Assembly (NCBI GenBank): GCA_016700175.1
Contig: CP065003.1
Location: 1,805,238 to 1,869,237, forward strand
DNA length: 64,000 bases
Source of the DNA: Acidobacteriota bacterium
GTDB taxonomy: Bacteria; Acidobacteriota; Blastocatellia; Pyrinomonadales; Pyrinomonadaceae
Direction: 5' to 3'
This document shows positions 4,305-44,674 of this stretch, piece after piece. Within the stretch, counting starts at the first letter, position 1. Each line of letters starts with the position of its first letter. A program made the position numbers and the translations under genes. Below the pieces are notes generated by a model. The model saw only the letters and a program-made list of their open reading frames with translations. It was not told the origin of the DNA and did no database searches.

Positions 4305-5342
4305 CTATTTTCCGCTGCCGTCGACGATCTTCGGTTCAACCACTTCCACGGGTTCCGGCGGAAGCATGTCCAGTGAAGGCGGCGTTTTCAGGTTCTCCTG
4401 GAAGAAGTAGATCACTTTTTGATCGTAAGAGTCCGCCTTGTCCGGCGATACGTTGACGAGATCAACGCCGGACGCAGCGAGGTCGGTGAAAGATTGGACC
4501 TGTGTGTCTGACGGGAAACATCCCGCGAGCGATTCGGTCGACTGCTTCAACCCCGGCACGTCCTGGCCCGATAGAAGAAGCGCCTTGCGGTCGCGTATCG
4601 TCTTCGCAAGTTCGCAAACGGACTGGCGCTGATAACATCCCCTCGCGTAGTAGATGTAGGTCGCTCCTTTTGCCATTCCCGCCGTCACCGAACTGAGGAA
4701 CGGATACCTTTTCGCTATCACGGTGTCGATCAGATCGTCCGATTGCTGCGGCACAGAGTCGATAACGACCGAGCGTACGCTCTGATCCCTCGCAGCCGTG
4801 GCCAATGCCGCGATCCCTCCCATCTCGACTCCGTAGATGCCGATCTCCTCGCCGACAAGATTGTCGCGGCTCGCGTCCCGGAGTCCTCTCAGGTAGTCGA
4901 TCGCCGCGAGCGTGTCATCGACCTCGCATCCTCCGAACGATGTCGACGCGACCGGCGGATCCTGGCCGTGTCCCCTCTGGTCGGGCATTAGCACGGTGAA
5001 GTCCGTTGCTTCGCTTAGCTTGACTCCGAGATTGAGCACGTAAGACCTGTCGCCTCCGTATTTATGGAGCAGGATGACGGCCGGATAGTTCTTCTTGCCG
5101 CGGAGAAGCCAACCGCGCGCGGTCGAACCGTCGCGGTTCTTCCACGTCTCGCTCGTAACCTGTGCGGCGTGTGCGCTGAGCCTTCCGTACACTTCCGGCG
5201 TGACCAGATAGGTGTTGCGCGGAGGCGTGGACGTCGAGTGGACGAGCCAGATAGAAGCTCCCATCAGCATAACGACGACGGAGACGACAACGGGCAAAAG
5301 CAAACGGACGATGCTCTTCAAGAGTCGGTTAACTTTATACAT
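4305..5342 (-). CDS. alpha/beta-hydrolase fold protein, membrane-anchored
   Basis: N-terminal TM helix. The nucleophile-elbow region reads GIYGVEMGG (Glu where Ser is expected). Overall layout is dienelactone hydrolase/peptidase S9-like. Confidence 0.7.
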   Translation of the reverse strand: MYKVNRLLKSIVRLLLPVVVSVVVMLMGASIWLVHSTSTPPRNTYLVTPEVYGRLSAHAAQVTSETWKNRDGSTARGWLLRGKKNYPAVILLHKYGGDRSYVLNLGVKLSEATDFTVLMPDQRGHGQDPPVASTSFGGCEVDDTLAAIDYLRGLRDASRDNLVGEEIGIYGVEMGGIAALATAARDQSVRSVVIDSVPQQSDDLIDTVIAKRYPFLSSVTAGMAKGATYIYYARGCYQRQSVCELAKTIRDRKALLLSGQDVPGLKQSTESLAGCFPSDTQVQSFTDLAASGVDLVNVSPDKADSYDQKVIYFFQENLKTPPSLDMLPPEPVEVVEPKIVDGSGK

Positions 5343-5511
5343 ATCGGTAGTTTCGGGTTTGCTCCGGCAGGGTGGGATCTGCTTCAGGGCGAGCGAACAA
5401 CTTGTGCCTGATTCGGCGGGTCTTAGTCTGAAAGCCCCGGGAAAAGAGCTTTCGGCAAGCCAACTAAAATGGTACCATAACCGCAGTCCGCAAAGGAAGG
5501 CTTAAGATCTT

Positions 5512-7386
5512 ATGAGAATTACCGTACCCGCCTTTTTCCTCGCTCTTGTTCTTTTCGTTCCGACAGTTTTCGCACAGGATTCAGTGTCATCCGGAATGTC
5601 CTCGGCAGCTTCGAAGCCGTCGGGCGAGAAGTATTTCCCGCTTGGCGAGCTTAAGGAAGGTATGACCGGAAAGGCCCGGACTGTTTTCAGCGGGTCTGAA
5701 GCGACGGAGTTCGATGTCGAGATACTAGGCGTGCTTCCGGGATGGATCGGGCCAAAGCAGGACCTGATCGTCGGACGGATCTCGGGCGGCGGTGCGGACA
5801 GGACAAAGGTCTTCGCAGGAATGAGCGGCTCGCCGGTTTACATCAACGGGAAACTGGTCGGAGCGATCTCTTACGCGTTCCCTTTCTCGACCGAGGCGAT
5901 CTGCGGGATCACGCCGATCGAGCAGATGGTGTCGATCTTCGAGAATAACGACGCGGGAAAAGAAAGCGCTTCAAAACCGCGGTCCTATTCTTTCGCGGAA
6001 CTCGCCGCTTCGGAATGGAGGCCGAATCTTCCTGAGACTGCAAACCGTTTCGGCGCAGGCATTTATACCGGCGATGCATCTTCGCCTCTGGGTGTTCTTA
6101 CCAGCCAGACCTTCCGGCCGATCGCCGTGCCGGTCTCGTTCTCCGGATTCTCGCAAGCCACATTGAATGAATTTGCGCCCCAGCTTCTTAGATCCGGACT
6201 TCTTCCTGTTTCCGCTCCGGTCGGCACTCTGAGATCGAAGGAAATGAAAAAAGCCGACGAGACGACCCTTAACGGCGGCGATTCCGTGGTGATCCACCTT
6301 ACGAGCGGCGATTTTTCGATGGCGGCGAGCGGCACGGTGACGATGCGGGACGGCGATAAGATCTATGCGTTTGGCCACCCGTTCATAGGCGTCGGCGGTT
6401 CCTCGCTGCCTATGTCGGAATCGCACGTCGTTACGGTCGTGCCCAGCGTTAACAACTCCTTCAAGCTTGCCGTTCCGGATGCGATTGTCGGCTCGATGAC
6501 CCAGGACCGCGCCACAGGAGTGTACGGCAAACTTGGCGAGGCTCCCAGGATGATCCCGGTCCGTATGAACCTTCGCACGAGCCGAAACAAGCTCGAAACG
6601 CTCGAGTTCGAGATCGCGCACGACGAGACGCTTGCGCCGCTTCTTGTGAACATGGCGGTTTTCAACGCGATAATCGCGAACGAGCGTGCGCTCGGCAACA
6701 TGACGATCGAGGTCGACGGGAAGATAAGCCTGAAAGGTCACGAACCTGTCAAGATCGATGGAAGGTTCGGCGGACAGGCGGCGCTCCGGTTTGCCGCCGG
6801 CGCGGTCGTGGTGCCCGTCGGGAATCTCATTTCCGGCAGGTTTGACGATCTTCAGTTCGAAGGCATCGAGATCAATTTGACGACCGAAGAAGGCAACAAG
6901 GCCGCGGAACTGGAAAGGATCGTGGTCGACCGCACCGAGGCGAGGGCGGGCGAAACGGTTTATATTCAGGCGTTCGTGCGCGGTGATTCGGGCAAGTTAT
7001 TCACCCAGCGGATCCCGTTCACTATCCCTGCCGGCACACCCGCCGGAACTTTGACGATCGAGGTCGGAGACGGCTCGAGGCTTCAGGAAAAAGCCTCTGC
7101 AAAGAGGTTCGTCCCGGAATCGCTGGCGGATCTTATCAGCAAGATCAACGAGGTCCGCAAGAACGACCGTCTGTACGTCCAGTCTTACCGGACGACGAAG
7201 GGCGCGATCGTGGGCTCGGACGAGATGCCGAACCTTCCGCCTTCGGTCCTTGCGACGATGAACAACAACCGCACGTCCGGAGGCCACACGCCGACCGTCG
7301 AGACGCTCGTTTCGGAGATCGAGGTCGCGCCGGCGGAGTTCATAGTGACGGGTCAGCAGACGATCAAGATCGAGGTGGTGCGGTGA
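5512..7386 (+). CDS. secreted SpoIVB-like (peptidase S55) serine protease
   Basis: Signal peptide. GMSGSPVYINGKLVGAISYAF matches the catalytic-serine block of S55/SpoIVB peptidases. Confidence 0.7.
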   Translation: MRITVPAFFLALVLFVPTVFAQDSVSSGMSSAASKPSGEKYFPLGELKEGMTGKARTVFSGSEATEFDVEILGVLPGWIGPKQDLIVGRISGGGADRTKVFAGMSGSPVYINGKLVGAISYAFPFSTEAICGITPIEQMVSIFENNDAGKESASKPRSYSFAELAASEWRPNLPETANRFGAGIYTGDASSPLGVLTSQTFRPIAVPVSFSGFSQATLNEFAPQLLRSGLLPVSAPVGTLRSKEMKKADETTLNGGDSVVIHLTSGDFSMAASGTVTMRDGDKIYAFGHPFIGVGGSSLPMSESHVVTVVPSVNNSFKLAVPDAIVGSMTQDRATGVYGKLGEAPRMIPVRMNLRTSRNKLETLEFEIAHDETLAPLLVNMAVFNAIIANERALGNMTIEVDGKISLKGHEPVKIDGRFGGQAALRFAAGAVVVPVGNLISGRFDDLQFEGIEINLTTEEGNKAAELERIVVDRTEARAGETVYIQAFVRGDSGKLFTQRIPFTIPAGTPAGTLTIEVGDGSRLQEKASAKRFVPESLADLISKINEVRKNDRLYVQSYRTTKGAIVGSDEMPNLPPSVLATMNNNRTSGGHTPTVETLVSEIEVAPAEFIVTGQQTIKIEVVR

Positions 7387-7459
7387 GCTGTGAGCTGTGA
7401 GCTGTGAGCTGTGAGCTGTGAGCTGTGAGCTGTGAGCTGTGAGCTGTGAGCTGTGAGCG
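7383..7459 (+). repeat. heptamer tandem array (GTGAGCT) x10 plus 1 variant
   Basis: Counted unit by unit. The stop codon of the S55 peptidase gene (7384-7386) is inside unit 1. Confidence 0.97.
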
Positions 7460-7505
7460 AATGTAGCGATGCCCTGCGTGATGTCAAGAGCTTTCTCCTG
7501 CTTAC

Positions 7506-7568
7506 CGCTCACTGCTCACCGCTCACCGCTCACTTTTTACCGCTCACTGCTCACCGCTCACTGCGTAC
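7506..7568 (+). repeat. heptamer tandem array (YGCTCAC) x9, inverted partner of 7383-7459
   Basis: Units CGCTCAC/TGCTCAC with two degenerate units. This is the reverse complement of GTGAGCR. Confidence 0.95.
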
Positions 7569-7575
7569 TCTAGTT

Positions 7576-8121
7576 ATGAACTCCGATTTCCAACGCCTTG
7601 TTACCGCCGCTCACTACGCGGCCCACCAGCACAGGACACAGAAACGAAAGGGCCTTAATGAGGAACCCTACATTGTCCATCCGCTCGAAGTGGCGAGGCT
7701 CCTTTCAACCATCGGCGGCGTCCACGATCCGGACGTTCTGATCGCCGCGATCCTCCACGACACTATCGAAGACACAAGTGCTGAGAAAGAGGACATCCTG
7801 GAGATGTTCGGTGAGCGCGTGTGCGAGATCGTCCTCGAAGTCACCGACGACAAGTCGCTTCCCAAGGCGGAGCGCAAGAAGCTTCAGGAAGAACACGCTC
7901 CGCATCTGTCGCCAGAAGCCAAACAGCTAAAAATGTGCGACAAGATCAGCAATATCTCGGATATCCTGGAGAATCCTCCGAAAGACTGGCCGCTCGAGAG
8001 AATGATCGAGTATGTCGACTGGGGAGAGCGCGTGTTCGCCGGGCTGAGGGGTACGAACGAGGATCTCGAGCGGCACTTCGACGAGCTTGTCGAACGGGCG
8101 AGAAGGGAGCTGGGGGCGTAA
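7576..8121 (+). CDS. HD-domain hydrolase, small (p)ppGpp hydrolase (Mesh1/SpoT-HD-like)
   Basis: HPLEVARLL and LHDTIEDT motifs. The start was moved to ATG 7576 because 7453-7575 of the tracked ORF is translated heptamer array. Confidence 0.75.
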   Translation: MNSDFQRLVTAAHYAAHQHRTQKRKGLNEEPYIVHPLEVARLLSTIGGVHDPDVLIAAILHDTIEDTSAEKEDILEMFGERVCEIVLEVTDDKSLPKAERKKLQEEHAPHLSPEAKQLKMCDKISNISDILENPPKDWPLERMIEYVDWGERVFAGLRGTNEDLERHFDELVERARRELGA

Positions 8122-8129
8122 GTCGGACC

Positions 8130-8220
8130 GCGGGCGTCCCCGCCCGCATTCCTCCGCGCATCCGCGCGGCGCAAACTGGAGTTCACGGTACCTCGAGGTA
8201 CGATAGGCTTCAGCCTGTCG
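8130..8220. repeat. mosaic of hairpin modules C, B (minus orientation) and D
   Basis: GCGGGCG-TCCC-CGCCCGC (8130-8147), module B reverse copy (8154-8194), CGATAGGC-TTCA-GCCTGTCG (8201-8220). Confidence 0.9.
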
Positions 8221-8256
8221 AGGATCCCGCCCGGTCCGGCGTAACCGAACACATAA

Positions 8257-8820
8257 TTACCTTACCCTCCAACTCGAACGGCCGGTCAAATGGTCAGGAA
8301 ACAAGGAATATCCGTTGTCTCCAGTTCCCAGCAGCGAAATGCCTTTCTGAGTATCCACCAACCCACAGAATATCGAAAAGTCAGCATGATCGTGCTCCCA
8401 GTACAGATCTACCCTTGCATTCCCTTTTTCATATACCACTGCCGGAGCTAATGGTTGATCCGAGGACAGCCGCCAGCCATCTTTCTTGAGAAACTCCTCT
8501 GCGTGCTGGACGAAGTCCCTTCCATTCCCTTTCGCTTCATAGAAGTATCCGAGTGTGCTGATATTGTACAGTCCTTTGATCCCAACCAACTTCGCGTCCG
8601 CTGGTAGCGGTATTTTCCCGCAGACCTCGTCTAAATGACCGTAGAGTGGATCTTGCCGTATTTTCTTTTCAGCCAATCTCGTGCTCTCAGAATCGAATCC
8701 AGGGCTTGGGTTTACAAAATAGCAGCTAGAAACTACAACCGCCAGCGAAATCGTTACGCAAGCAATCGCCACCCGTATAGACGGGCGAATTCGGCATGTA
8801 TCAGTAATGCAAGCTCGCAT
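8257..8820 (-). CDS. hypothetical lipoprotein
   Basis: 187-aa ORF with a signal/lipobox-like N-terminus (..AVVVSSC). Visibly lower G+C than its neighbours. No recognisable domain. Confidence 0.5.
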   Translation of the reverse strand: MRACITDTCRIRPSIRVAIACVTISLAVVVSSCYFVNPSPGFDSESTRLAEKKIRQDPLYGHLDEVCGKIPLPADAKLVGIKGLYNISTLGYFYEAKGNGRDFVQHAEEFLKKDGWRLSSDQPLAPAVVYEKGNARVDLYWEHDHADFSIFCGLVDTQKGISLLGTGDNGYSLFPDHLTGRSSWRVR

Positions 8821-8918: not shown

Positions 8919-9338
8919 TTACTCCCCTTCAACCCAAACCTCGCCATCGGCATAAACTTCTTTCTTCCAGATCGGGACCGTTCGCTTTAATTCCTTGATC
9001 AACCATTCGCATGCCTCGAACGCAGCTCGCCGATGTGGGGCGGCGACAGAAATGACGACGCTTGTTTCACCTATCCTCAGCTTTCCGAGCCTGTGAACTA
9101 TGGCGACGTTCGAGATATCGAACTCGTCTTTCGCCGCGGCCGCAAGCCTTTCCATCTCCTTGAGCGCCATCGGCTTGTAAGCTTCATAAACCAGATATTC
9201 CGTCTCGCGGCCTCTTGTGAATCGCCGAACGTATCCGTCAAGCGTCACTGTCGCTCCGCACTCTTCGGGAACGACCCTCCGTGCGATCTCGCCGACATCG
9301 AGTGGATCTATTGTTAGTTCAAAGAACATGAGTCCCAT
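8919..9338 (-). CDS. moaE: molybdopterin synthase catalytic subunit MoaE
   Basis: 139 aa. Contains ETSVVISVAAPHRRAAFEACEWLIKELKRTVPIWKKE, the typical MoaE core. Lies downstream of moaD. Confidence 0.85.
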   Translation of the reverse strand: MGLMFFELTIDPLDVGEIARRVVPEECGATVTLDGYVRRFTRGRETEYLVYEAYKPMALKEMERLAAAAKDEFDISNVAIVHRLGKLRIGETSVVISVAAPHRRAAFEACEWLIKELKRTVPIWKKEVYADGEVWVEGE

Positions 9339-9371
9339 TGGTCAACGATCATTGCACACTTGATCAATGAC

Positions 9372-9623
9372 TCAGCCTCCTGAAACCGCGGTGAACACCG
9401 CCAGTTCGTCTCCTTCATTCACAGTCTCATCAGCCCTCACATACTCCTGGTTAACCGCAAAGAGCAGTGAGCTGCGGTCGCGGCTCGCGGTCAGTTTCGG
9501 ATAGCGATCGAGAATCTCGGTAAGTGCGGTTTCAGCCCCGATCCCGTCTTCGAGATCGATCTCCGCTTTGGCCGTTCCCGCCTCTTCAGCGGTTGCTCCG
9601 AAGAACAAGACAGATACTTTCAT
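9372..9623 (-). CDS. moaD: molybdopterin synthase sulfur-carrier subunit MoaD
   Basis: ThiS/MoaD-size protein ending in GG. The start was set at internal ATG 9623 (MKVSVLFFGA...) because the upstream part of the ORF is repeat sequence. Confidence 0.75.
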   Translation of the reverse strand: MKVSVLFFGATAEEAGTAKAEIDLEDGIGAETALTEILDRYPKLTASRDRSSLLFAVNQEYVRADETVNEGDELAVFTAVSGG

Positions 9624-9649
9624 TTTGAATCTCAAACTTTGAACTTCTC

Positions 9650-9684
9650 GAGGTAGCCCTCCCTCACGGTCGGGCTTCCGACAC
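9650..9684. repeat. dispersed word GTAGCCCTCCCTCACGGTCGGGCTTC(C)GACAC
   Basis: Near-identical copy at 23336-23372. A related stretch occurs at 27455-27490. Confidence 0.85.
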
Positions 9685-9761
9685 CACTCACTGCTCACCG
9701 CTCACGGCTCACTGCCCACTGCTCACTGCTCACTGCCCACTGCTCACTGCTCACCGCTTAC
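9685..9761 (+). repeat. heptamer tandem array (TGCTCAC/TGCCCAC family) x11
   Basis: Counted unit by unit. Overlaps the last 5 codons and the stop of the acyl-CoA ligase gene. Confidence 0.95.
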
Positions 9762-11342
9762 CTCTTTCTTAAGCGTCAACTTGTGGATCTTTCCCGTCCC
9801 GCCGATCGGGAGCTCGTCCCGGAACTCCACATAACGCGGATACTTGTTCGCCGCGAACTGCTCCTTGCACCAGTCGATGAACTCTTTCTCAGATAGCTCG
9901 GCTCCCTCGTTCAGGACGAGAAAAGCCTTCACTTCCTCTCCCATCTTCTCGTCCGGTACGCCGATCACGGCCACCAGAGACACCGCCGGATGCGTCATTA
10001 TCACTTCCTCGAGCTCGCGCGGATAGACGTTGTACCCACCGCGCAGGATCATGTCCTTCTTGCGGTCGACGATCTGCACGTAGCCGTCTTCGTCGATGAT
10101 CCCTATGTCGCCCGAATGGAACCAGCCGTTCTTGAAAGCTTCAGCGGTAGCCTCGGGCCGTTTGTAGTAGCCCTTCATCACGTTCGGACCGCGGATCACG
10201 ATCTCGCCGCGTTCGCCCGCCGGGACCGTCCTTCCTTCCTCGTCGACACACCGGACGTCCACACCCTGGATCGGCTGGCCGACCGTGCCGGGCTTCGAAG
10301 GCCTGTCGAAATGATTGAAGGTCGCGAGCGGCGATGTCTCAGACAAGCCGTAACCTTCGAGAATGCGCACGCCGAACATTTCGCCGAACTCGCGCATGAC
10401 TTCCACAGGCATCGGCGCGCCGCCGGAGGTCGGAACCTTGAAGAACTCTTTGATCTTCGACACGTCGCGGCCCGTCTGCTTCACGTACTGAAGAAGCGCC
10501 CAGTACATCGTCGGGACGCCGACCCAGAAGTTCACGCGCTCTTTTTCCATCGCGTCGAGCGTCGCCGCCGGATCGAACCTGGGGATCAAAACGACCCGGT
10601 TCCCCGCGAACATGTTCGTGTTCATCTGGACCGTCTGCCCGGTCGTGTGGAAAAGCGGAAGCGTGATCAGGCAGGTCATCTGACCGCCTCCGGTGAAATC
10701 CAGCACCGGAAGGTGAATGTTGTATGTCGTGCTTATGTTCGTGAAGAGGTTCAGGTGAGTGAGTTCCGCGCCTTTCGGCTGGCCGGTCGTGCCGGAAGTG
10801 TAAAGGATCGCGCAGGTGTCGTCCGGGTCCGTCGCGACCGTCTCGTACACGGCCGGCTTGTCATAGATCAGCTGGGTCAGCGTTCGATGGCCCTCGATCG
10901 GGCTCGGAGCAAGCTTGTCCGCCGTCATCACGACCAGGTGCTCGCATGTTCCGGCGCGGTCAAACCCTTCCTTGACCATCTGCGCCATGGGAAGTTCGTC
11001 CGTGCCTTCAAACACGAATACCGCCTTGGCGTCGGAATCCTCCAGGTGATACGCGATCTCCCTGGGCTTGAACAGCACGTTCAGAGGCACGACCGCGGCG
11101 CCCGCTTTGAGGATTCCGTAATAGACCATCGGAAAATACGGCAGGTTAGGACAGCTGAGCGCGACCTTGTCGCCCTTCTCGATCCCGAGTTCCCCGAGAG
11201 CGTGCGCGACGCGGTTCGCAAGCGCGTTCAGTTCCCCGTACGTCATCCTGACGTCGTTCCAGATCACCGCCTCCTTTTCAGGAGCGAGCCGCGCCTGATG
11301 CTCGATGATCGAGGCGAGATTTAACGTAGTTACTTTCCCCAT
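9744..11342 (-). CDS. long-chain fatty-acid--CoA ligase / AMP-dependent synthetase
   Basis: AMP-binding motif ILYTSGTTGQPKGA and the usual C-terminal GWFHSGD...GKI blocks. The last 5 codons and the stop lie in a heptamer array. Confidence 0.9.
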   Translation of the reverse strand: MGKVTTLNLASIIEHQARLAPEKEAVIWNDVRMTYGELNALANRVAHALGELGIEKGDKVALSCPNLPYFPMVYYGILKAGAAVVPLNVLFKPREIAYHLEDSDAKAVFVFEGTDELPMAQMVKEGFDRAGTCEHLVVMTADKLAPSPIEGHRTLTQLIYDKPAVYETVATDPDDTCAILYTSGTTGQPKGAELTHLNLFTNISTTYNIHLPVLDFTGGGQMTCLITLPLFHTTGQTVQMNTNMFAGNRVVLIPRFDPAATLDAMEKERVNFWVGVPTMYWALLQYVKQTGRDVSKIKEFFKVPTSGGAPMPVEVMREFGEMFGVRILEGYGLSETSPLATFNHFDRPSKPGTVGQPIQGVDVRCVDEEGRTVPAGERGEIVIRGPNVMKGYYKRPEATAEAFKNGWFHSGDIGIIDEDGYVQIVDRKKDMILRGGYNVYPRELEEVIMTHPAVSLVAVIGVPDEKMGEEVKAFLVLNEGAELSEKEFIDWCKEQFAANKYPRYVEFRDELPIGGTGKIHKLTLKKEVSGEQ

Positions 11343-11410
11343 TTTCGTTCAAGACGTAAATTGAAGTGATGGTAAGACTTGCGAGTGGAGACAAGTCTAT
11401 TTCCTTAAGG

Positions 11411-11472
11411 GTTCAAAGTTCAAGGTTCAAAGTTCAAAGAGGCGAGCCGTGAGCAGTGAGCGGTGAGCAGTG
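11411..11472 (+). repeat. (GTTCAAR) x4 followed by (GTGAGCR) x3
   Basis: 11411-11438 and 11449-11472. Two word families lie side by side. Confidence 0.9.
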
Positions 11473-11576
11473 TTCGAAGCCTACGGGGTCCAACGAGTGG
11501 CACAAATTACAAGAATCATACTTCAATGACTTGGTGTCAGGTGCTGCGGATCCGGCGCGATATGTGAAGGGCCGAT

Positions 11577-11723
11577 TCTTGAATTTTGAACCTTCAACCT
11601 TGAACTTTGAACTTTGAACCTTGAACCTTGAACCTTGAACCTTGAACCTTGAACCTTGAACCTTGAACTTTGAACTTTGAACCTTGAACCTTGAACCTTG
11701 AACCTTGAACTTTGAACCTTGAA
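11577..11723 (+). repeat. heptamer tandem array (CYTTGAA) x21
   Basis: 147 nt equals exactly 21 units. It is the inverted partner of 11411-11438. The 74-aa tracked ORF here is just its translation. Confidence 0.97.
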
Positions 11724-11766
11724 GCCTACAAAGATCAGCGCGGGCACAGGTCCCGCCCCTGCAGGA

Positions 11767-12534
11767 TCAAACCGTCATCCCGCCGTCGACCACGATCGTC
11801 TGCCCCGTCACGTAAGAAGAGGCATCGGACGCGAGGAACACCGCGGCGCCTTTCAGTTCGCCTTCCTCGCCGATCCTCGGGATCGGGTTGTTCTCGCGGA
11901 TAGCATTCTCGTAAATGTCGATCACCGGATCGGCGAGCCTCGATCGGAAGAATCCCGGAGCGATCGCATTGACGCGGATCCCCCTTCTTCCCCAGCTTGC
12001 CGCAAGCTCGCGGGTAAGCCCGATCAGCCCCGCCTTGCTCGCTACGTAGCCTGCGTAAAAAGGTCCGTTGGCCGACGAGGTGATCCCTGAAATGGACGTG
12101 ATGTTGATGATCGAACCGCTTCCCTGCTTCAGCATCTCGCGGCCCGCCGCCTGTGCGAAGAGAAAGCAGCCGGTCAGATTCACGTCCACGACCTTCTGCC
12201 ACTTTTCGAGCGGCATCTCCTCGGGCATCGCCCCCCACGAAATGCCCGCGTTGTTGATCAGGATATCGACCTTGCCGAACTTTTCGACCGTCGCATCGAC
12301 GACCGTCTGAACCTCGTCGGCCACTGAGGTGTCGCAGAGCATCGACTCGACCTCGAATCCGCGGCCTTTGAACTCCTCGACCGTTTCATCCAGCCATTCC
12401 GCGCGCCTTGCGCACAGCATCAGCGAAGCGCCCGCTTCCGCCAGGCCCTCCGCCATCTCTTTACCCAGCCCTCGCGATCCGCCGGTGACGATCGCAGACC
12501 GACCTGTGAGATCGAACAATTCCATTACGCTCAT
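11767..12534 (-). CDS. SDR-family oxidoreductase
   Basis: TGGSRGLG cofactor motif and YVASK catalytic YxxxK. Starts 6 nt downstream of the kinase stop on the same strand. Confidence 0.9.
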   Translation of the reverse strand: MSVMELFDLTGRSAIVTGGSRGLGKEMAEGLAEAGASLMLCARRAEWLDETVEEFKGRGFEVESMLCDTSVADEVQTVVDATVEKFGKVDILINNAGISWGAMPEEMPLEKWQKVVDVNLTGCFLFAQAAGREMLKQGSGSIINITSISGITSSANGPFYAGYVASKAGLIGLTRELAASWGRRGIRVNAIAPGFFRSRLADPVIDIYENAIRENNPIPRIGEEGELKGAAVFLASDASSYVTGQTIVVDGGMTV

Positions 12535-12540
12535 AATTCT

Positions 12541-15165
12541 TCAGCCTTCGGTACGGCCGCTTGATCGCGGCATACCCATCCGTTCAAGGAGCTTGAAATA
12601 CCGCGGATCGCTGCGGATCTGTTCGAACGGAGGGCTCCACCGGATATAAGGCAAAAAGGCGCTGCGAGCTTCAAAATCCTTCTCCAGCCATTCGAAAGCC
12701 TTGTCATTCTCCCCGAGCCCGGAATAGATGCGGGCGATGTTCCGGCCCTGAGAAGAACTGGATCGGTACCTCTCGATCAGCGAATCGAGTATCTTACCGG
12801 CCTCGTCCCTTTTACCCGCCCTCGCAAGCACGTAACCGTAGATGGACAACGCGTTGACCGATTCCGGCGCCAGCTTGTTACACGTGGTCGCCGTTTCGAC
12901 AGCCGATCGGAAGTTTTCCCGGCTGGCTTCCGCCAATGCCAGCATGCAGTGGGTCCACGGAAAATCCGGTTCCAGCGCGATCGATCTCTGAAGTACCGAT
13001 ATCGCCGACACGTGATCCCCGAGCACGAGATGCGCTCCGGCGAGATTCGTGATGATGATCCCCGACAGCGGGTCCAGCTGCTCGGCGATCTTCGATTCGA
13101 CAAGCGATTCGTCAAATCTTCCGAGCTCACGGAGCAGAAGGCTGTACCAGTGCCGGACTTCGGCATAATTCGGCTTCAGGCTGATTGCCGTCTTGTACTC
13201 ACGCTCAGCCTCCGTCCATTCCCACGAACGATGAAGCACAAGTCCGAGCGACGCGTGGGCTTCCGGGAGCATAGGATCCGCTTCCAGGGCCTTTGAAGCG
13301 TATGCCCTTGCGCGCCTTAGTAGCTCCGAAGAGCGCTCGCCGGTGTAGTTCTCGAGCAGCACATAGGAATCCGAAAGCCCTACATAGGCCAAAGCGAATC
13401 CGGGATCGGATTCGACAGCCGCGGAATACTCCTCGATCGCCGTCCTGAGGCTGTCGGGAGTCCTCTTGTTCCATTGGTAGCGGCCGCGCAGATAGTGCCG
13501 AAAGGCTTCCGCGCTCGCGGTGTACGGCTTTTCGAGGCGCTCACGCTCCGGTTTCGCTATCTCGAGGTTGAGTTCTTCCAGGATATCGATGGCGATAGCG
13601 TTCTGCAGCGACGCGAACTCCGAATGGTCTCTGGTGTAGCCGCGCCCCCATAACCGGTTGCCCGTAGCAGTTTCGACGATCTCGATGTTCACCCCGATCC
13701 CCTGCGACTGCTTTGTGATCTCTCCAAGCACCACGGTGTCGACCGCCAGTCTGCGGCCGATCTCCTGGGCCGTCACGTCCTGCCCCTTGAACCTGAACAC
13801 GGAACTTCGCGCCTTCACTTTGACGGACGGCATATGGGACAGCTTGTCGATCAGCGATTCGGTGAAACCGTCGGCGACTGCCTCGAATTCCGGATCTTCA
13901 GTCAGGTTCACGATCGGAAGGACCGCCACCGCCTCAATGTTGGGCCTCGCCTCCGTCGCAAGCAATGAGTACAGGTACAAACCGGCGATCGAGGCGATCG
14001 CGAGGACCGCAGCAGCAGACGCTAACCATCTTCGGCTTTTCCCGGCGCGAAACGATCCACTGGTTTCGCGGATGCCCTCCGTCGAGTTGGCTCCGTTTAC
14101 CCGGGCACGAAATGCCCGGAGATCGGCCAGCATCTCTCCGGCGGACGAATATCGCTCTTCAGGGTCCTTCTTGATGGCCTTCCCGATTATTCTCTGAAGG
14201 TCGTCCGCTTCCCCGGCATCCGGCACGTTTTCGAACACCGGTTCTTTTTCGAGAATCGACGATACCGTGTCCGAATGGGTCTCGCCGTCGAATGGCGCCT
14301 CGCCTGTCAACATTTGGTAGAGCACGACACCGAAGCTGAAGATGTCGGTTCTGAAGTCGACCTCACCCGCGCGTGCCTGTTCCGGCGACATATATCCTGA
14401 GGTCCCGACGACAAGGCCCCTGATGGACGAAGCTTCCGCTCCATCGGCTCCTGCCTGTCCGCTTACGCTTTCCGTAAGCTTGGCAACTCCGAAATCAAGC
14501 ACCTTTACAAGCCCGTCGGGCCTGATCATTATGTTGCCGGGCTTTATGTCTCGGTGGATGATGCCCGCGTCGTGCGCGGCCTCGAGCGCCGAACCGATCT
14601 GCACGGCGACATCCGCGATCTCGTCAAGTTCCATCGCTCCGCGTTTCAGGCGGTCGCGAAGCGTCTCTCCCTCGATAAACTCGGTGGCAATGTACCTCAG
14701 TTCCTCGGTGTCCCCGATATCGTAGACGGTGAGGATGTTGGGGTGATTCAGCGCCGAGGCCGTTTTTGCTTCAAGCTCGAATCGCCGCAGCGCACCGCTT
14801 CTCCCGAGCAGGCCGCCGCTGACGAACTTGATCGCCAGTTTGCGGTCGAGACGCGGATCCTCGGCGAGATAGACGGTTCCCATACCGCCTTGCCCGATCT
14901 TGCTTATGATCCTGAAATTGCCGAGGTCCGTGCCGCTCAGGTCCGCGGCGCCGACGGAAGACAGAAGCTCGGCGGCGAGATCCTCGGGAGGAATGTCGAC
15001 GACACCGTTGAATTCGTCGTCAAACGAAAGAAGCTCCTTCAACCGTTCCTCGACCGCCTGGTCGCCGCCGGACCGCGAACGGACGAATCCGTCCCTCTCC
15101 TCGGCCGGGAGCTCGATCGCCCGGTGATACAGGTCTTCGATCCGTTTGAATAAGGCAGGATCCAT
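12541..15165 (-). CDS. Ser/Thr protein kinase with TM helix and C-terminal TPR domain, sigma-linked
   Basis: G-loop GQGGMG at aa 91-96, HRDIKPGN, DFG, SPEQ. A 70-aa N-terminal helical extension, one TM helix and TPR repeats. Confidence 0.9.
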   Translation of the reverse strand: MDPALFKRIEDLYHRAIELPAEERDGFVRSRSGGDQAVEERLKELLSFDDEFNGVVDIPPEDLAAELLSSVGAADLSGTDLGNFRIISKIGQGGMGTVYLAEDPRLDRKLAIKFVSGGLLGRSGALRRFELEAKTASALNHPNILTVYDIGDTEELRYIATEFIEGETLRDRLKRGAMELDEIADVAVQIGSALEAAHDAGIIHRDIKPGNIMIRPDGLVKVLDFGVAKLTESVSGQAGADGAEASSIRGLVVGTSGYMSPEQARAGEVDFRTDIFSFGVVLYQMLTGEAPFDGETHSDTVSSILEKEPVFENVPDAGEADDLQRIIGKAIKKDPEERYSSAGEMLADLRAFRARVNGANSTEGIRETSGSFRAGKSRRWLASAAAVLAIASIAGLYLYSLLATEARPNIEAVAVLPIVNLTEDPEFEAVADGFTESLIDKLSHMPSVKVKARSSVFRFKGQDVTAQEIGRRLAVDTVVLGEITKQSQGIGVNIEIVETATGNRLWGRGYTRDHSEFASLQNAIAIDILEELNLEIAKPERERLEKPYTASAEAFRHYLRGRYQWNKRTPDSLRTAIEEYSAAVESDPGFALAYVGLSDSYVLLENYTGERSSELLRRARAYASKALEADPMLPEAHASLGLVLHRSWEWTEAEREYKTAISLKPNYAEVRHWYSLLLRELGRFDESLVESKIAEQLDPLSGIIITNLAGAHLVLGDHVSAISVLQRSIALEPDFPWTHCMLALAEASRENFRSAVETATTCNKLAPESVNALSIYGYVLARAGKRDEAGKILDSLIERYRSSSSQGRNIARIYSGLGENDKAFEWLEKDFEARSAFLPYIRWSPPFEQIRSDPRYFKLLERMGMPRSSGRTEG

Positions 15166-16872: not shown

Positions 16873-18111
16873 TTGGCGGAGGGAAAGATTGAACGGTCAG
16901 CAAAATTCTTTCCGCCTTCGGCGCCTTCATCTCTCGCGTGGGCCTTTTCGGATCAGCGGAATGTTGATAGATTGTGGCTCCTGATGTTCAAAGGCCTCAA
17001 AGAGCACGAACCCGGATTCCTCAGATGGAAGCTTCTCATTTTCTGGGCATTGCTCACCTTCGTGGGACTTCTACTGACGATCTCGCTTTACGCGGGTAGT
17101 TACGCCGTCGGCGAGCCGGCGACTCTTTTGGAAGCCTTGAATTCGCAGATGGTCCGGTTCCAGGTCTGGGCGGCGTTCGCGGTTCTGATCGTCGGCGTGG
17201 ACCTTGTTTACAGGCGCTACTTCCGCTCGTGGTTTCTCCGATTTCCTGTTCATCTTGTGACGGCACTGGTCTGGTCGGCAGTCACGGCCACCGTCACCGT
17301 AGTGTTGATGTGGCTGTTCGAAGGACTGACGAGCTCGCAGCCGAGCGGGCTTGGTACGATCGCCGCGGCGACAGGCGTCGGAAGCGTCGTGACCGGGGTG
17401 ATCGGCTACAAGATAATCCTGACCACCAATTACGCGCTCGATTTCAACAAGAAGTTCAACGACGAGAAGAACAAGAGCGAAGTGCTCGAGAGGCAACTTG
17501 CACAGGCGCAGCTGCAGGCGCTGAAGATGCAGCTTCAGCCTCATTTTCTTTTCAACACGTTGAATTCGCTGTCGAGCCTGGCGCTGGAAGATCCCAGGCA
17601 GACGGTGCATATGATAACCAGGCTCGGGGACTTTCTGCGGATGACCGTCGATTCGAACGGCACGCAGACAGTCTCGCTGGAGCAGGAACTGGAGTTTCTG
17701 AAGAACTACCTGGAGATCGAAAAGGTGCGTTTCCGGGACCGTCTGGAGCCGGTGTTCGAGATCGATCCGGAAACGCTGGGCGCAGACGTGCCGAACCTGC
17801 TTCTTCAGCCGGCGGTCGAGAACGCGATCAAGCACGGCGTTTCGAAGAGCATGAGCGCGGGAAGGATCCTGATCTCGGCACTGCGAGAGGGTGAGCGGCT
17901 GGTCTTAAAGATCGAGAATGACGGACCCGTGCCGAACGGCCGGCCCGGGACGGAGGTCAGAGAAGGCGTGGGGATCGCGAACACCCGCGAGCGGCTGAAG
18001 CAGATCTACGGCGAGGACTTCGAGCTGGATTTCGAGCTGCTCCCTCGAGGTGGAGGAAGACTAATGATCTCAGTGCCCCTTAGACCGAACGGGACCGAAG
18101 ATGATCACTAG
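16873..18111 (+). CDS. sensor histidine kinase, LytS/YehU type
   Basis: Multiple TM helices, LQPHFLFNTLNS (His_kinase PF06580-type H-box) and HATPase N-box LLLQPAVENAIKHG. TTG start is uncertain. Confidence 0.8.
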   Translation: MAEGKIERSAKFFPPSAPSSLAWAFSDQRNVDRLWLLMFKGLKEHEPGFLRWKLLIFWALLTFVGLLLTISLYAGSYAVGEPATLLEALNSQMVRFQVWAAFAVLIVGVDLVYRRYFRSWFLRFPVHLVTALVWSAVTATVTVVLMWLFEGLTSSQPSGLGTIAAATGVGSVVTGVIGYKIILTTNYALDFNKKFNDEKNKSEVLERQLAQAQLQALKMQLQPHFLFNTLNSLSSLALEDPRQTVHMITRLGDFLRMTVDSNGTQTVSLEQELEFLKNYLEIEKVRFRDRLEPVFEIDPETLGADVPNLLLQPAVENAIKHGVSKSMSAGRILISALREGERLVLKIENDGPVPNGRPGTEVREGVGIANTRERLKQIYGEDFELDFELLPRGGGRLMISVPLRPNGTEDDH

Positions 18112-18120
18112 GTTTCTTTT

Positions 18121-19334: not shown

Positions 19335-22300
19335 CTACGTCCCGAATTTGGCGCGGATCTTCACCGCCCGTTCGAGCCCGTCGACGTTCTCCAGGATCTT
19401 CCTTTTCAGGTCGGCATCAAGCTTTGGATTCGCTTCCAAAAAACGGTTCACGATCTGCAAGGCCTCTTCGCTCTTCTGCCCGCCGATGAACGAGCCGAGC
19501 CAATTGTTCACGAAGAAGATCTTTCGGTTGCGTTTCAAAGCCGGCAGTTCGGCGAGCGCTTCGTCGAGATAAGGGAGCGTAAGTTCCGAATGCGAAGGCG
19601 AATTCCAGACGCCCGACGCCTCCTCGATCCAGCTTTCGGAGATCTCCTTGTTCTCGGTGAAATCCTTCCAGTACTTCGCCTTGTTCTCTTTAGTCGCGAA
19701 TCCCGCCTTCGCGGCGTATGCCCAACGGAGCGCCGCGTCGTCCTTCTCGGTCTTTTCGAGCTCGGCGAGGAACTTCGCCCCGTCCGGATCGCCGGCGACT
19801 ATCAGGCGCGTGGCGATGTCGAAGCGGTCTTTCGGGCGGACAGGAAAGGGAGTACTGAGAGATGAGTACTGAGTACTGAGATTGCCCCCTGAATTGAGGT
19901 TCAGGTTTGAGTCTGTGGGCCCCTTCTCAGTCCTCAGTACTCTCTTCTCAGTACTCGAACCGCCTTCGGCTTTTGCTGGGCTACCATCCGTCGCTCCTCC
20001 GGAGCGAAGATCGACACCCGTCTCCGGTCTTCGGTCTCCCGTCTCCTGACTTCTGACTTCTGACTCCTCTGCCCCGTCTCCCGTCTCCGGTCTTCGGTCT
20101 CCCGTCTCCGGTCTTCGGTCTCCCGTCTCCTGACTTCTGACTTCTGACTCCTCTGCCCCGTCTCCCGTCTCCGGTCTCCCGTCTCCCTTGCGGAACAGTT
20201 CCTTCAGCGCCGCCCTCGCCCTTTCTCCTTTCGCAACGCCCAGCAAGGCTCGGAAATACGTGATCCTCTGCCCTACGGTCGGCGCGCCGTAGATCTTGTC
20301 GACAAGCAGCGCCTCGAGCTTCTGCGTGACCTCGTCCTGCTGTTTTTCCGAAAGGTAATACGTATAGGCGTACGCCACCCGGCCGAGGATCGACGAGATC
20401 GTCGTCTCGTCCTTCTCGATGTCGATATTCGCGATCGCGAGGTTTATGTAATCGAGCGGCGCGAGCTCGGCGAACCGGACCGAATCCCAGAGGCTGCCCC
20501 ACATCTGCGCGCGGAAAAACTCGTCCTTCTCGTCTCGTATGTTCTTGAGGATGTAGTTCCGGCTCTTTTCATCGAGCAGGAAAATCCCATAGCCGTAATC
20601 GCGGTAATTGGGGAATATCAGAATGGTCTTGCGCTCGTTTAACTTCGGTGGCTCAGACGAGTAATCGTCCTTTTTCTTGGCTTCGCTCTCATCGTCAAGA
20701 GGAAAGAGAAACTCCCTGCGTCTTGTGATCGAGTTGGATTCAAGGTCAGGCAACCTCGCATACGCTCTGTACCCAATTGGAATTCTTTCGATTCTCGTTT
20801 CACCATTCTCAAATACTCTGAGAACTTGAATATCCTGAAGCCAGTTGTAGTTAGCTTCGGGCAATATCGGCTCTTGAAGCATGTAGTCATTGAGAACAGT
20901 ATGTCCTCCATGGGCTCCGCATGAACGAGTAAATCCTGGGAGATCAGCAATGGGATTCGGGTCGCTCATCAAACAGTCTGACGGGCGATAAACGGCGGTT
21001 CCGGGCTTCGAAACCCAGTACCATGCCCACTCACTTCTCACGTGCCACTTGGTGAAATCAATCAGCGCTTGCTTGTCGGAATCACTTAGCTTCTTGAAGA
21101 ATTCTCGCTCAGACTCCTTTCTCACCCGAATGTAGGCGATTTCGTCCACTAGATCATGCCAGGTTGCGTTTCCGAATTCATGGCTATTCAGAAATTGACG
21201 TACAGCCTCCCTGAAAATCTCCTCGCCCCAAAAGAACTCAGCTTGCTTTAAGAACGATGGGGCCTTCTGATACACGATATTTCCGTAAGCAGATTTTGCC
21301 GCGCTCAAGTTCGGGAGTTCTTGATGGATTGGAGTAGTCCCACTTGTAACGTCTGTTTGGTAAGCGGCGCTCTTAGTCCGCTGATAGAAGACCTTCCAGG
21401 GATCGTATTCGGGAAGGACCTTCTCCATCGTCTTGTACGCCATGAACGTGGCGAATCCTTCCTTCAGCCAAAGGTCGTCGAACCACTTCATCGTGACCGT
21501 GTCGCCGAACCACTGGTGGGCCGCCTCGTGAAAGATGACCGACGCGCGCGAGATGTAGTTGTTCGCGGTCGGTTCGGTCGGGAAAATGACGGACGTCTCG
21601 CGGAGGAACGTCGCGCCTGCGTGCTCCATTCCGCCGAAAGGAAATTCGGGGATCAAGACGACATAGTACTTCGGAAACGGGAAAGGGTAGTCGAAATAGT
21701 CCTCGAGATACTCGATCGCCTCGCGGTTGAGGCGGAATACCTCTTCGACCGGAGCGACTGGAGCGCGGGCGCTTGGACCGCGGGCGTCCTCGCCCGCATC
21801 TGTGTTCCCGACTGGAGCGCGGGCGGCCTCGCCCGCATCCGCCGCCTGTGGCGGCAAGAGTTTATGCGCCTGTGATTTCCGGACGAAGATACGAATCGGA
21901 ACGCGGTCGGAGGGCCCGTCGCTACCGCTCCGGGTACTGAGTGGCTCCTGAATCACCTCAAACGGTCCCGCCGCGAACGCGAAAACGTAAGTACTGATCG
22001 GCTTAGTTTCTTCAAAGCCGACGTACCGACGCTCTGCTAGTTTCTTACGGTATTCTTCGGCTTCGCTTCTTACGGAGGGTCCGATGCCGGGCCGCGTACG
22101 TGAAGTATCGATACCTCCATTGCTAATCGCGACCCAGTCCTTCGGAATATCCATCGACAACAGGAAGCGCGCTTTCAAATCCGGTTGATCAAAGACCGGG
22201 AAGGCCGTCGAAGCATCCGAGGGAACGAATAGCGAGTAGATATACTCTGAGCCATCCTCCGTGTCTTTGTATCTCGTCACCGCGGCTCCCGACGTCAGGA

Positions 22301-22927: not shown

Positions 22928-23072
22928 CCCTCTCTGTGTTCTTCGTGAAATCCTCTGTGCGCTCTGTGGTGAATTCTTCTCTGACAAAATGCACGCGCCC
23001 GCCATCCTGGAAAACAAAAAAGACACTCCCGTAAGGAAACGTCTCGGTCAGATCGGGTTGTATCGGGTCAGG
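22928..23072 (+). repeat. 145-bp direct repeat, copy 1
   Basis: Aligns by eye with 23141-23284 (offset 213 nt). Contains CTCTGTG words and a minus-strand terminator. Confidence 0.9.
23009..23044 (-). terminator. intrinsic terminator (minus strand), copy 1
   Basis: The minus-strand RNA reads AGACGUUUCC-UUAC-GGGAGUGUCU (10 bp including G.U pairs) followed by UUUUUUGUUUUCC. It lies inside a 145-bp direct repeat. Confidence 0.6.
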
Positions 23073-23140
23073 AATCAGGTGTCAGGTGTCAACGGTCAGG
23101 TATCAAGCGCCGGAGCGTCAAACTATGTACACAAAGCATC

Positions 23141-23284
23141 GCCCTCTGTGATCTCTGTGAAAACCTCTGTGTGCTCTGTGGTTAACTCTTCTTTGACAAA
23201 ATACAAGCGCCCGACATCCGGGAAAACAAAAAAGACGCTCCCGTAAGGAAACGTCTCGGTCAGATCGGGTTGGATCGGGTCAGG
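23141..23284 (+). repeat. 145-bp direct repeat, copy 2
   Basis: See 22928-23072. Confidence 0.9.
23220..23255 (-). terminator. intrinsic terminator (minus strand), copy 2
   Basis: The minus-strand RNA reads AGACGUUUCC-UUAC-GGGAGCGUCU followed by UUUUUUGUUUUC. On the plus strand the same stem would have C.A mismatches. Confidence 0.65.
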
Positions 23285-23359
23285 GAGCAATGGTCAGGTA
23301 TCGAGGATCACGTATCAGCGGCTCGAGGCTCTCAGTACTCGCGGTAGCCCTCCCTCACG

Positions 23360-23598
23360 GTCGGGCTTCGGACACGGGCTCAATCGACCTCTCCTCTTCT
23401 CATGTGCTGCGCAAGCGCTGCTCTAAACGGGCGCGAGTCGGGCTTCGGACACGGGCTCAATCGACCTCTCCTCTTCTCATGTGCTGCGCAAGCGCTGCTC
23501 TAAACGGGCGCGAGTCGGGCTTCGGACACGGGCTCAATCGTCCTCTCGCTTCCCTCATGTGCAGCGCAAGCGCCGCTCTAAACGGGCGCGAGTCGGGT
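23360..23598 (+). repeat. 77-bp tandem repeat x3.1
   Basis: The GTCGGGC anchor recurs at 23360, 23437, 23514 and 23592. Each unit holds a module-A hairpin (GCTGCGCAAGCGCTGC) plus CTCTAAAC. Confidence 0.93.
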
Positions 23599-23696
23599 CA
23601 CTCTCAGTACTCAGCACTCATCTCTCAGTACTCAGTACTCAGTACTCAGTACTCAGCACTCATCTCTCAGCACCGCTCACCGCTCACTGCTCACAG
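23599..23696 (+). repeat. 14-unit heptamer array (AGTACTC family merging into GCTCAC family)
   Basis: Counted in phase from 23599. The TonB stop codon (23691-23693) lies in the last unit. Confidence 0.93.
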
Positions 23697-27091: not shown

Positions 27092-27112
27092 TGATTTTTA
27101 GGATCTGGACGC

Positions 27113-27155
27113 GAGGTAACGCGAACTTCAGTTTGCGCCGCGCGAATGCGCGGAC
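27113..27155 (+). repeat. hairpin module B copy (loop GAAT)
   Basis: GAGGTAACGCGAACTTCAGTTTGCGCCGCGC-GAAT-GCGCGG. Confidence 0.93.
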
Positions 27156-27410: not shown

Positions 27411-27515
27411 CTGAACTCAGTCCTTTCCTCTCAGTACCGTCCTTCGCCCTTGCTGACGCGCGGGCTACGGACACGAACACGATCCTCCCATTGACCGTTG
27501 ATCGATGAGCATTGA

Positions 27516-35342: not shown

Positions 35343-35510
35343 CCTACGCCATTCTTAGCCCAGATCATCGATAAATGTTGAAAAGATTGGCCGCTTTGGG
35401 CTAAAGTCGAGCCGCGGGCGCCCGTTCGGGAGTCCTCGGCTCGTTCAATCTACGGTGGCAGATCGATGGTCGTGAAATTTGGAAACTGGAGTCTGGGAAT
35501 CGGTTCCGAA

Positions 35511-44665: not shown

Positions 44666-44674
44666 TTCTTATTG

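Follow-up and report, generated by a model that had tools for sequence, protein, structure and literature searches.

Dense heptanucleotide repeat arrays with paired arms in an Aridibacter-like clade of the Acidobacteriota

The 64,000-nt stretch of DNA analysed here (hereafter the window) contains 26 indel-free tandem arrays of period 7, totalling 1304 nt. The most probable reading, to which we assign a probability of about 0.6, is that these arrays are hypermutable heptanucleotide simple sequence repeats (SSRs) of a known class that have proliferated in an Aridibacter-like clade, and that the paired ones act as the arms of stem-loops. They add a new member, unusually dense and well structured, to a class of repeats already known in bacteria.

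Arrays were called with Tandem Repeats Finder (TRF) and by direct reading of the sequence, and every one of them has 0% indels. All the period-7 arrays listed in a preliminary description of this DNA were recovered, close to the positions given there; the one placed at 7506-7568, however, was about 6 nt off, being found at 7500-7561. Block-wise dinucleotide shuffling of the window, repeated thirty times, gave 1.47 +/- 1.33 period-7 arrays (27 nt) against the 26 real ones, and no other non-triplet period was enriched in the window, which bears out the period specificity that had been proposed. A stricter detector applied to periods 5-30 returned arrays at period 7 only (n = 10, 640 nt, in the window). 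The density of period-7 arrays is about 41 per 100 kb in the window and 42 when loci L001 and L002 are pooled with it, compared to 5.4 in a control set of 77 unrelated loci from other phyla: period 7 is thus roughly 8-fold in excess, the remaining periods being equally represented in both sets. The arrays, with their strands and window coordinates, are as follows.

7380-7458 (TRF 7383-7458), + strand: (GTGAGCT) x10.9-11 array, 100% matches; 5' arm of a hairpin module, its first unit supplying the TGA stop (7384-7386) of an S55-peptidase-like gene (5512-7386)
7500-7561, + strand: (GCTCACY) x8.9 array, reverse-complement partner of 7380-7458, ending 15 nt before the ATG at 7577
9687-9758/9766, - strand: (GTGAGCR) x10-11 array; as 9687-9766 it overlaps the final codons and stop (9744-9746) of an AMP-binding gene
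11405-11439, + strand: (GTTCAAR)x4 in the + reading, short arm proximal to the AMP-binding start at 11342
11444-11472, + strand: (GAGCNGT)x4 array, within an invertible segment
11473-11577, no strand assigned: single-copy spacer, inverted in A. famidurans along with 11444-11472
11578-11723, + strand: (CYTTGAA) x20.9 (~21) array, 92% matches; long arm, 43 nt downstream of the SDR stop codon at 11767
19850-19956, - strand: reverse-complement pair (TACTGAG)x4 / (AGTACTC)x4, with arms 19850-19880 and 19926-19956 and a 45-nt loop, in frame in the M1 peptidase gene
20017-20187, - strand: x24.4 array (24 units) of the words AGACGGG, AGACCGR and AGTCAGR, in frame in the M1 peptidase gene 19335-22712 and translated into GDRRPETGD and SEVRSQE repeats
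23066-23107, + strand: six degenerate units of NRTCAGG, which TRF scores as 3.6 only
23603-23694, + strand: (CTCAGYA)x10 then (CACYGCT)x3.4, 13.5 units, beginning 3 nt past the stop of the TonB-like gene 23691-25106 (- strand)
27489-27521, + strand: minor array (CATTGAT)x4.7
37062-37123, + strand: GTTCAAG-type x8.9 array, beginning 3 nt past the iPGM stop
38347-38374, 39318-39344, 43094-43109, 55732-55755, 55921-55950 and 61909-61931: short arrays of 2.3-4.3 units
44444-44560, + strand: (GAGGACT) x16.7 array, perfect (100% matches); 5' arm of a module upstream of the Ser/Thr kinase gene 44672-47623
44598-44660, + strand: 3' arm of CTCAGTCC type with interrupted units, ending about 12 nt short of the start codon
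48203-48302, + strand: (GAGGACT) x8.3 (48203-48260) then (TTGATAG) x3.4 (48279-48302), the outer and then inner 5' arms of a nested module upstream of the kinase gene 48438-50924
48368-48433, + strand: inner 3' arm CAATTTCCAATTTTCCATTGTCAATT and outer 3' arm CCTCAGACCTCAGTCC...CTCAGCCC
63469-63501, + strand: AGTCAGR-type x4.7 short arm, adjoining the start of gene 62241-63461 (- strand)
63506-63559 / 63641-63666: second inverted pair, nested in the 63.5-kb module
63676-63743, + strand: (YCTGACT) x9.7 long arm

According to a gene map backed by codon-position GC and Pfam hits, 23 of the 26 arrays are intergenic, the intergenic share of the window being about 17%. The intergenic location claimed earlier therefore holds for most arrays but not for 20017-20187, nor for 19850-19880 and 19926-19956, previously unlisted, all of which lie within coding sequence. 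Nor do the arrays 'fill' the intergenic DNA, as had been stated: they take up about 10% of its bases in the window. An assembly artefact is unlikely, since many arrays contain unit variants and since the same arrays occupy the same sites in independently assembled relatives. Neither Rfam families nor tRNAs were found across the window. A 21-nt super-period, i.e. two helical turns, was considered and rejected: the autocorrelation at lag 21 (0.814) is not above that at lag 14 (0.807).

The vocabulary of the arrays is small. The 22 stronger arrays of the window fall into 8 word families, and 16 out of 66 pairs of loci share a word (one mismatch at most), compared to 4.3 +/- 2.0 (maximum 11) for random words. 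Word families reappear in the genomes of relatives as well as at unlinked loci: 22 of the 28 arrays in four related Aridibacter loci are built from the window's words, and L166, which belongs to a more distant genome, has the same vocabulary as the window. The shared words are GTGAGCN, GTTCAAR, GAGKACT, AGTCAGR, GAGACGG, TTGATAG and ATTCTCA. This contradicts the 'many different words' of the preliminary description and weakens the argument, based on a free word and a fixed period, that was drawn from them. Some words are also found outside the phylum: CTYCTGA in the window equals Geobacter MTYCTGA, and CYTTGAA is one mismatch away from Nostoc TTTTGAA; TAACTGA and GGGAATC were not found in the window. 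The cyanobacterial STRR family, to which the arrays had been likened, is a fair analogue, but its canonical words are missing: STRR1 (CCCCAGT), STRR2 (TTGGTCA) and STRR3 (CAACAGT) do not occur as tandem dimers in the window even with one mismatch allowed, and the STRR2 word was found in L003 only.

About half of the arrays (17 out of 35 in the window, L001 and L002 together) have a reverse-complement partner nearby, defined by at least 12 matching bases out of 14 at a distance of at most 350 nt. Reversed-word and complemented-word controls gave 4/35 and 3/35, respectively, so that true partners are about five times commoner. An independent inverted-repeat search identified the arms starting at 7380/7500 (58 nt, 81% complementary), 11405/11605 (35 nt, 91%), 44439/44598 (44 nt, 73%), 48207/48399 (35 nt, 77%) and 63469/63689 (33 nt, 91%). 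The array pairs constitute the arms of long stem-loops that lie between the stop codon of one gene and the start of the next. Within each of the window's five intergenic modules, the gene-distal arm carries a G/A-rich word on the sense strand and the arm proximal to the start codon carries its C/T-rich complement. The module upstream of the second kinase gene (kinase-2 module) is nested, (GAGGACT)n and (TTGATAG)n being followed by a loop and then by the complement of each; in L163, arrays are enclosed by REP-like outer arms. Placement relative to genes is consistent as well: arrays start at a stop codon or within 3 nt of it, or supply it, at 7380, 9766, 23694 and 37062 in the window and, in relatives, at L161 21477, L166 4929, L085 2500 and L089 1964, and further arrays terminate 10-55 nt ahead of start codons. 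The pairing of about half the arrays had gone unremarked in the preliminary description.

When folded in silico, all 11 modules assayed were more stable than their dinucleotide shuffles, with z-scores from -2.4 to -11; module 7380-7561 gave z = -11.0 in the sense orientation and -7.5 in the antisense orientation. The sense strand folds up to 33 kcal/mol more stably than the antisense strand, which could be taken as a sign of selection at the RNA level. We rejected this interpretation because the asymmetry is compositional: the sense-over-antisense advantage is -9.4 kcal/mol for native sequences and -7.0 kcal/mol once both strands are dinucleotide-shuffled. Since the advantage is almost wholly compositional, it does not separate RNA-level from DNA-level pairing. 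Note that a consensus scan picked up one sigma-70-like site, on the opposite strand in the loop 44562-44589, which is not above chance.

The arrays found in coding DNA lie in the open reading frame 19335-22712, which encodes an M1 aminopeptidase. Residues 693-837 and 964-1120 of this protein align collinearly with residues 555-705 and 725-879 of PDB 7v9o, which reveals an insert of about 110 residues in the window's protein. The insert is the translated array cluster 19850-20187, AGTCAGR being read as SEVRSQE and CTCAGTA as LSTQYS, and the sequence past it has a coding-type GC3. It is hypervariable but present in the nearest homologues, and missing from more distant ones; its orthologues differ by a net 210 nt, i.e. 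30 units or 70 codons, and L161 and L163 contain additional arrays within the same gene. Arrays in coding DNA are tolerated only with the frame preserved. A regulatory hairpin role is not obvious for these intragenic arrays.

The process that generates the arrays is unit slippage together with arm-to-arm recombination. L166 and L167 come from one species and were assembled independently; over 22.4 kb they match exactly save for one AGACAGG unit (8.1 versus 7.1 copies), the only other difference being a 7-nt offset at the locus ends; this is the unit-number polymorphism that had been proposed as a check. Orthologous arrays following the iPGM gene differ by 14 nt and 21 nt, in phase with the unit: A. 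famidurans, for instance, has 7 units where the window has 9 (a 14-nt in-phase indel). At the 11.5-kb site, unit counts (distal/proximal arm) are 21/4 for the window, 4/6 for L161 and 7/10 for L162, and all three species keep the paired word family there. Arrays are absent from some orthologous sites: L163 has a 98-nt spacer without arrays at the 11.5-kb locus, and in L002 the iPGM gene is followed by unrelated repeats.

Recombination between arms is seen at the same site. In A. famidurans (L161), the segment 11444-11577 is found on the other strand (229 nt, 82% identity, E = 3e-51), the genes that flank it are collinear (88-93%), and the endpoints of the inversion fall inside arrays; it is the sole case in a screen of four loci. 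A MoaE/ThiS inversion in L162 was examined as a second array-bounded candidate and rejected, its endpoints being repeat-rich without clear array boundaries. In the M1 gene, the two arms of a pair have changed together, from GAGTACT/AGTACTC in the window to GGACTGA/AGTCCTC in L161, a single case. In the kinase-2 module, the four arms are kept in the window, L001 and L166, which represent three species, while the loop (about 65 nt) has no remaining similarity across them; the nested arms are kept at 62% identity of the neighbouring protein. Gene conversion between arms, instead of selection, could account for this conservation.

The 3.8-kb segment 44442-48224, which lies between two direct (GAGGACT)n arrays, is missing in L001 and present in L002. 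Its absence is consistent with a repeat-mediated deletion, though a collapse of the L001 metagenome-assembled genome (MAG) during assembly may also be the cause.

The host of the window is an Aridibacter-like soil bacterium of the Blastocatellia. Its nearest genomes are those of Aridibacter famidurans and Aridibacter sp., in agreement with the earlier statement that the lineage differs from cyanobacteria; the iPGM protein (gene 35466-37058) is 94% identical to that of an Aridibacter famidurans MAG, 88% identical to that of an Aridibacter sp. MAG and 71% identical to that of an Acidobacteria MAG. Two of the window's proteins have 100% matches among NCBI MAG proteins, both on a contig of 4,490,879 nt. 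The gene content of the window fits such a host, with the M1 peptidase, a TonB-like protein and a number of Ser/Thr kinases that carry TPR or PD40 repeats. Period-7 arrays per 100 kb number 59 in L161, 47.5 in L162, 65.5 in L163 (MAG Ww303) and 71 in L166 (MAG GCA_003385635.1). They number 17-18 in metagenome relatives whose AMP-binding protein is 55-78% identical (relatives above 78% identity were not found in the metagenome scan) and 8.6-8.7 in Pyrinomonadaceae and Chloracidobacterium MAGs, the 77 loci from other phyla standing at 5.4. These densities indicate that the expansion is specific to the clade and not class-wide. A few unrelated controls, such as L012 (a deltaproteobacterial MAG) and L077 (Natronospira), are array-rich, which fits the scattered distribution described in the available text of an earlier report (PMC4679880).

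What the paired arrays might do is suggested by a Haemophilus precedent. The accessible account of the hmw1A and hmw2A genes of H. influenzae (PMC12721329) describes ten ATCTTTC units in the 5'-UTR that make up the left arm of a hairpin, which RNase III cuts, and reports that both hmw expression and repeat-number change depend on the transcribed hairpin. By analogy, the paired arms of the Aridibacter-like clade, if transcribed, would form long double-stranded RNA stems; these stems could serve as RNase III substrates or as elements controlling RNA stability or translation, and a change in unit number would then alter the length of the stem and tune the expression of the downstream gene. From the anatomy of the modules, their conservation and the Haemophilus analogue, we infer that the modules may act as tunable stem-loops, located in intercistronic RNA or in 5'-untranslated regions. 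Some observations count against a hairpin role: about half of the arrays are unpaired, some orthologous sites are array-free, and arrays also occur within a gene.

A less probable explanation, which nevertheless deserves serious consideration, is that the arrays are neutral by-products of a lineage-specific bias in replication slippage, the pairs persisting through homogenisation of inverted arrays by recombination. The fast turnover of words and copy numbers between species, the lack of arrays at some orthologous sites, the location of the in-frame insert in a tolerant protein loop and the disappearance of the strand-specific RNA signal after composition control are all in keeping with it, and a slippage bias was already proposed in 2007, as far as the accessible text of two reports goes (PMC4679880, PMC4692102). 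Such neutrality accounts poorly, however, for the fivefold excess of reverse-complement partners over controls, for nested arms that persist at 62% identity of the neighbouring protein while their loop has diverged, for a limited and recurring vocabulary, and for the consistent placement of arrays at stop codons and just ahead of start codons.

We regard as doubtful a more far-reaching version of the stem-loop interpretation, in which a transcription- or hairpin-dependent process of the hmw type, operating genome-wide in the clade, would build and resize arrays from a vocabulary shared across phyla, with CTGA-core words (Geobacter, Beggiatoaceae) and a TTTGAA-type word (Nostoc). The paired arrays would then be tunable stem-loops and occasionally invertible switches, and would control many genes, including the Ser/Thr kinase family. 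The candidates put forward for period 7 in the literature are the footprint of the polymerase and a process that needs transcription, an RNA hairpin and RNase III.

It is improbable that the inverted pairs function as DNA-level switches, i.e. as invertons that reversibly flip the enclosed segment and alter the expression of its neighbours. Such switches would leave a segment in both orientations, as seen for 11444-11577 when the window is compared with A. famidurans, its endpoints falling inside arrays, but this is one case in the four-locus screen and the orientations differ between species, not within one population. Moreover, the segment has no sigma-70-like promoter in either orientation (with the caveat that the consensus may not be that of this phylum), no recombinase gene lies nearby (the neighbours being an SDR, an AMP-binding enzyme, a kinase and an ECF sigma factor), and the inversion may stem from misassembly of short reads at inverted repeats in a MAG.

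Heptamer-binding factors have precedents in ToxT, which acts at (TTTTGAT)n, and in SARP regulators. The arrays could accordingly be viewed as binding sites for a protein that recognises a 7-nt unit, either a transcription factor or, on RNA or single-stranded DNA, a protein of the cold-shock or OB-fold type. A restricted, conserved vocabulary and words that overlap those of other phyla (the Geobacter and Nostoc words mentioned above) would suit such a protein, and the accessible part of PMC4679880 considers a CspB footprint in which each heptamer is covered by one protein. Yet we consider this very improbable: eight dissimilar families would call for several binders or for one whose specificity is very loose, the analysis identified no candidate protein, and the pairing of arms is left unexplained. 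Finally, miniature mobile elements (MITE- or REP-like) with heptamer terminal inverted repeats, to which the nested inverted-repeat anatomy, the module lying within a gene and the REP-like outer arms of L163 might point, are largely refuted by loops and spacers that are single-copy and match only themselves and their orthologues, target-site duplications and a transposase not having been seen either.

Viewed as proliferated heptanucleotide SSRs with paired stem-loop arms, the arrays make this clade an independent example, of very high density, in a phylum of which some members are in culture (genus Aridibacter). A clear repeated anatomy, single-unit polymorphism, an array-bounded inversion and in-frame translated versions come together in one clade, so that one organism could address period-specific slippage, hairpin processing and the tuning of expression by unit number. 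The arrays also carry a warning for annotation, as they can supply stop codons and create hypervariable protein inserts.

Bacterial heptanucleotide repeats have been on record since 1990. In the searchable literature, we found no description of heptamer repeats for Aridibacter, Blastocatellia or Acidobacteria; to that extent the lineage is undescribed, as had been supposed, but heptanucleotide excess and the idea of period-specific slippage were published in 2007. The cyanobacterial STRR of Calothrix, Anabaena and Nostoc similarly comprise several heptamer words per genome at intergenic positions, and the Nostoc heptamers are often near start codons, according to the available text of a preprint (bioRxiv 10.1101/2022.06.06.494920). 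They differ in belonging to another phylum, the present host not being a heterocystous cyanobacterium, and in their words, STRR1-3 being absent from the window.

Closer in layout are the repeats of Xanthomonas, Geobacter and Beggiatoaceae, as far as the accessible sections of these reports describe them: GGGAATC-type repeats in Xanthomonas and Nostoc, which form inverted pairs in Xanthomonas and vary in length between the same genes (PMC4692102); MTYCTGA x5 sites in Geobacter metallireducens, shown as looping between strands and with intragenic copies too (PMC2700814); and TAACTGA arrays immediately upstream of start codons in Beggiatoaceae (PMC4679880). All share with the window intergenic arrays that lie between the same genes in relatives and vary in length and sequence. 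Those accounts, in the portions available, deal with one or two words each, and do not report an array-bounded inversion, co-varying arms or a hypervariable translated insert.

The hmw system shares with the present arrays a heptamer array that precedes the start codon, acts as the arm of a long hairpin and is polymorphic in unit number. In its published description, as available, it concerns one pair of loci in a pathogen, the right arm being a G-rich stretch and not a second array; here, by contrast, many loci are involved and both arms are arrays. A further match is with the long SSRs surveyed in 2007 by Mrazek, Guo and Shah, as summarised in PMC4679880 and PMC4692102. That survey, as summarised, presents heptanucleotides as the commonest class of long SSRs, in excess in many bacteria, and offers the idea that 7 nt is the DNA segment held by the polymerase, hence a period-specific slippage. 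Indel-free tandem 7-nt units, over-representation at this period only, a preference for non-coding DNA, length variation in close relatives and a scattered phylogeny are common to both. All the features that define the class (exact 7-nt tandem units, over-representation, non-coding preference and unit-number variation) were found here. Compared to the SSRs of that survey, the arrays of the Aridibacter-like clade are distinguished by their very high density, their paired arms and their small, recurring vocabulary.

The low-complexity insert of the M1 aminopeptidase (window 19335-22712; L161, an A. famidurans locus, 10001-13783; L163, from MAG Ww303, 4848-8309) is hypervariable and is produced by a non-triplet repeat. 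Translated heptamer arrays accumulate at several positions in the enzyme of this clade, the length of which ranges from 1054 to 1260 aa.

Ser/Thr kinase genes are clustered (window 12541-15165, 44672-47623 and 48438-50924), with five in 22 kb in the more distant relative GCA_003385635.1 (L166, 1466-22475). Heptamer-array modules lie upstream of most of these genes. In these modules the C/T-rich arm extends as far as the start codon, with nothing resembling a Shine-Dalgarno sequence to be seen. One kinase gene (44672-47623) forms, together with a small gene (47634-48131), a 3.8-kb segment (44442-48224) bearing direct copies of a REP-like box plus (GAGGACT)n on both flanks. The segment is present in L166 and in a further related locus, L002, and absent from the A. 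famidurans contig (L001), which reflects either a repeat-mediated deletion or an assembly collapse.

A dispersed REP-like element, GGTAACGCGAACTTCAGTTTGCGCCGCGCGAAAGCGCGGAA, which contains a CCGCGCG/CGCGCGG hairpin, was also observed, along with a second palindromic family, CCGTTTAGAGCAGCGCTTGCGCTGC, and a third REP-like family, GGAAGCCCGACCGTGAGGGAGGGC (window positions unless a locus is named):

44375-44417, 48133-48197, 51094-51158, 50968-51012, 27112-27154: GGTAACGCGAACTTCAGTTTGCGCCGCGCGAAAGCGCGGAA element
8153-8196 (-), 43151-43185 (-): GGTAACGCGAACTTCAGTTTGCGCCGCGCGAAAGCGCGGAA element, minus strand
37283-37310; 23405-23426, 23482-23503, 23560-23581 (-): CCGTTTAGAGCAGCGCTTGCGCTGC palindrome
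L001 11783; L161 9488: CCGTTTAGAGCAGCGCTTGCGCTGC palindrome in relatives
9630-9690, 23338-23375: GGAAGCCCGACCGTGAGGGAGGGC family
L162 (Aridibacter sp.) 17970-18112; L163 10910-11125, 12830-13010: GGAAGCCCGACCGTGAGGGAGGGC family in relatives

The GGTAACGCGAACTTCAGTTTGCGCCGCGCGAAAGCGCGGAA element, with seven copies in the window and others in all Aridibacter loci, is usually found directly 3' of a stop codon; in two cases a (GAGGACT)n array follows it immediately. Copies of CCGTTTAGAGCAGCGCTTGCGCTGC are embedded in a 77-nt tandem repeat of the window (x3.1, 23360-23597). In L163 and L162, heptamer arrays are enclosed by outer arms consisting of two inverted GGAAGCCCGACCGTGAGGGAGGGC copies and, at the L162 orthologue of window 7380-7561, such an inverted pair replaces the GTGAGCT/GCTCAC arrays.

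Intergenic tandem repeats of other periods occur in the window as well:

22932-23317: 212 nt, x1.8
37161-37283: 21 nt, x5.9 (shorter by one unit in L001)
37701-37949: 102 nt, x2.4
63506-63559: 25 nt, x2.2

The 102-nt and 25-nt repeats have in common the motif ACAGGAT(G/A)GACAGGAT, also present in L002 (11590-11750).

The MoaE/ThiS segment (window 8919-9416) is inverted in Aridibacter sp. (L162, 16612-17109), the window, L161 and L163 all having the opposite orientation to L162. The inversion endpoints fall in repeat-rich intergenic DNA, but at no clear array boundary. A 187-aa ORF on the minus strand (8257-8820) displays an atypical codon-position GC, with a GC3 of 0.51 versus about 0.75 in its neighbours. 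L162 and L163 both lack an equivalent ORF in the interval from MoaE to the HD-domain gene, so this one may have been inserted or may not be a genuine gene.

Finally, heptamer arrays are also abundant in two unrelated control loci, each of which uses its own words: a deltaproteobacterial MAG from groundwater (L012) has 14 arrays in 21.5 kb, and Natronospira elongata (L077) carries an AGCTCGA/AGCTACG family.
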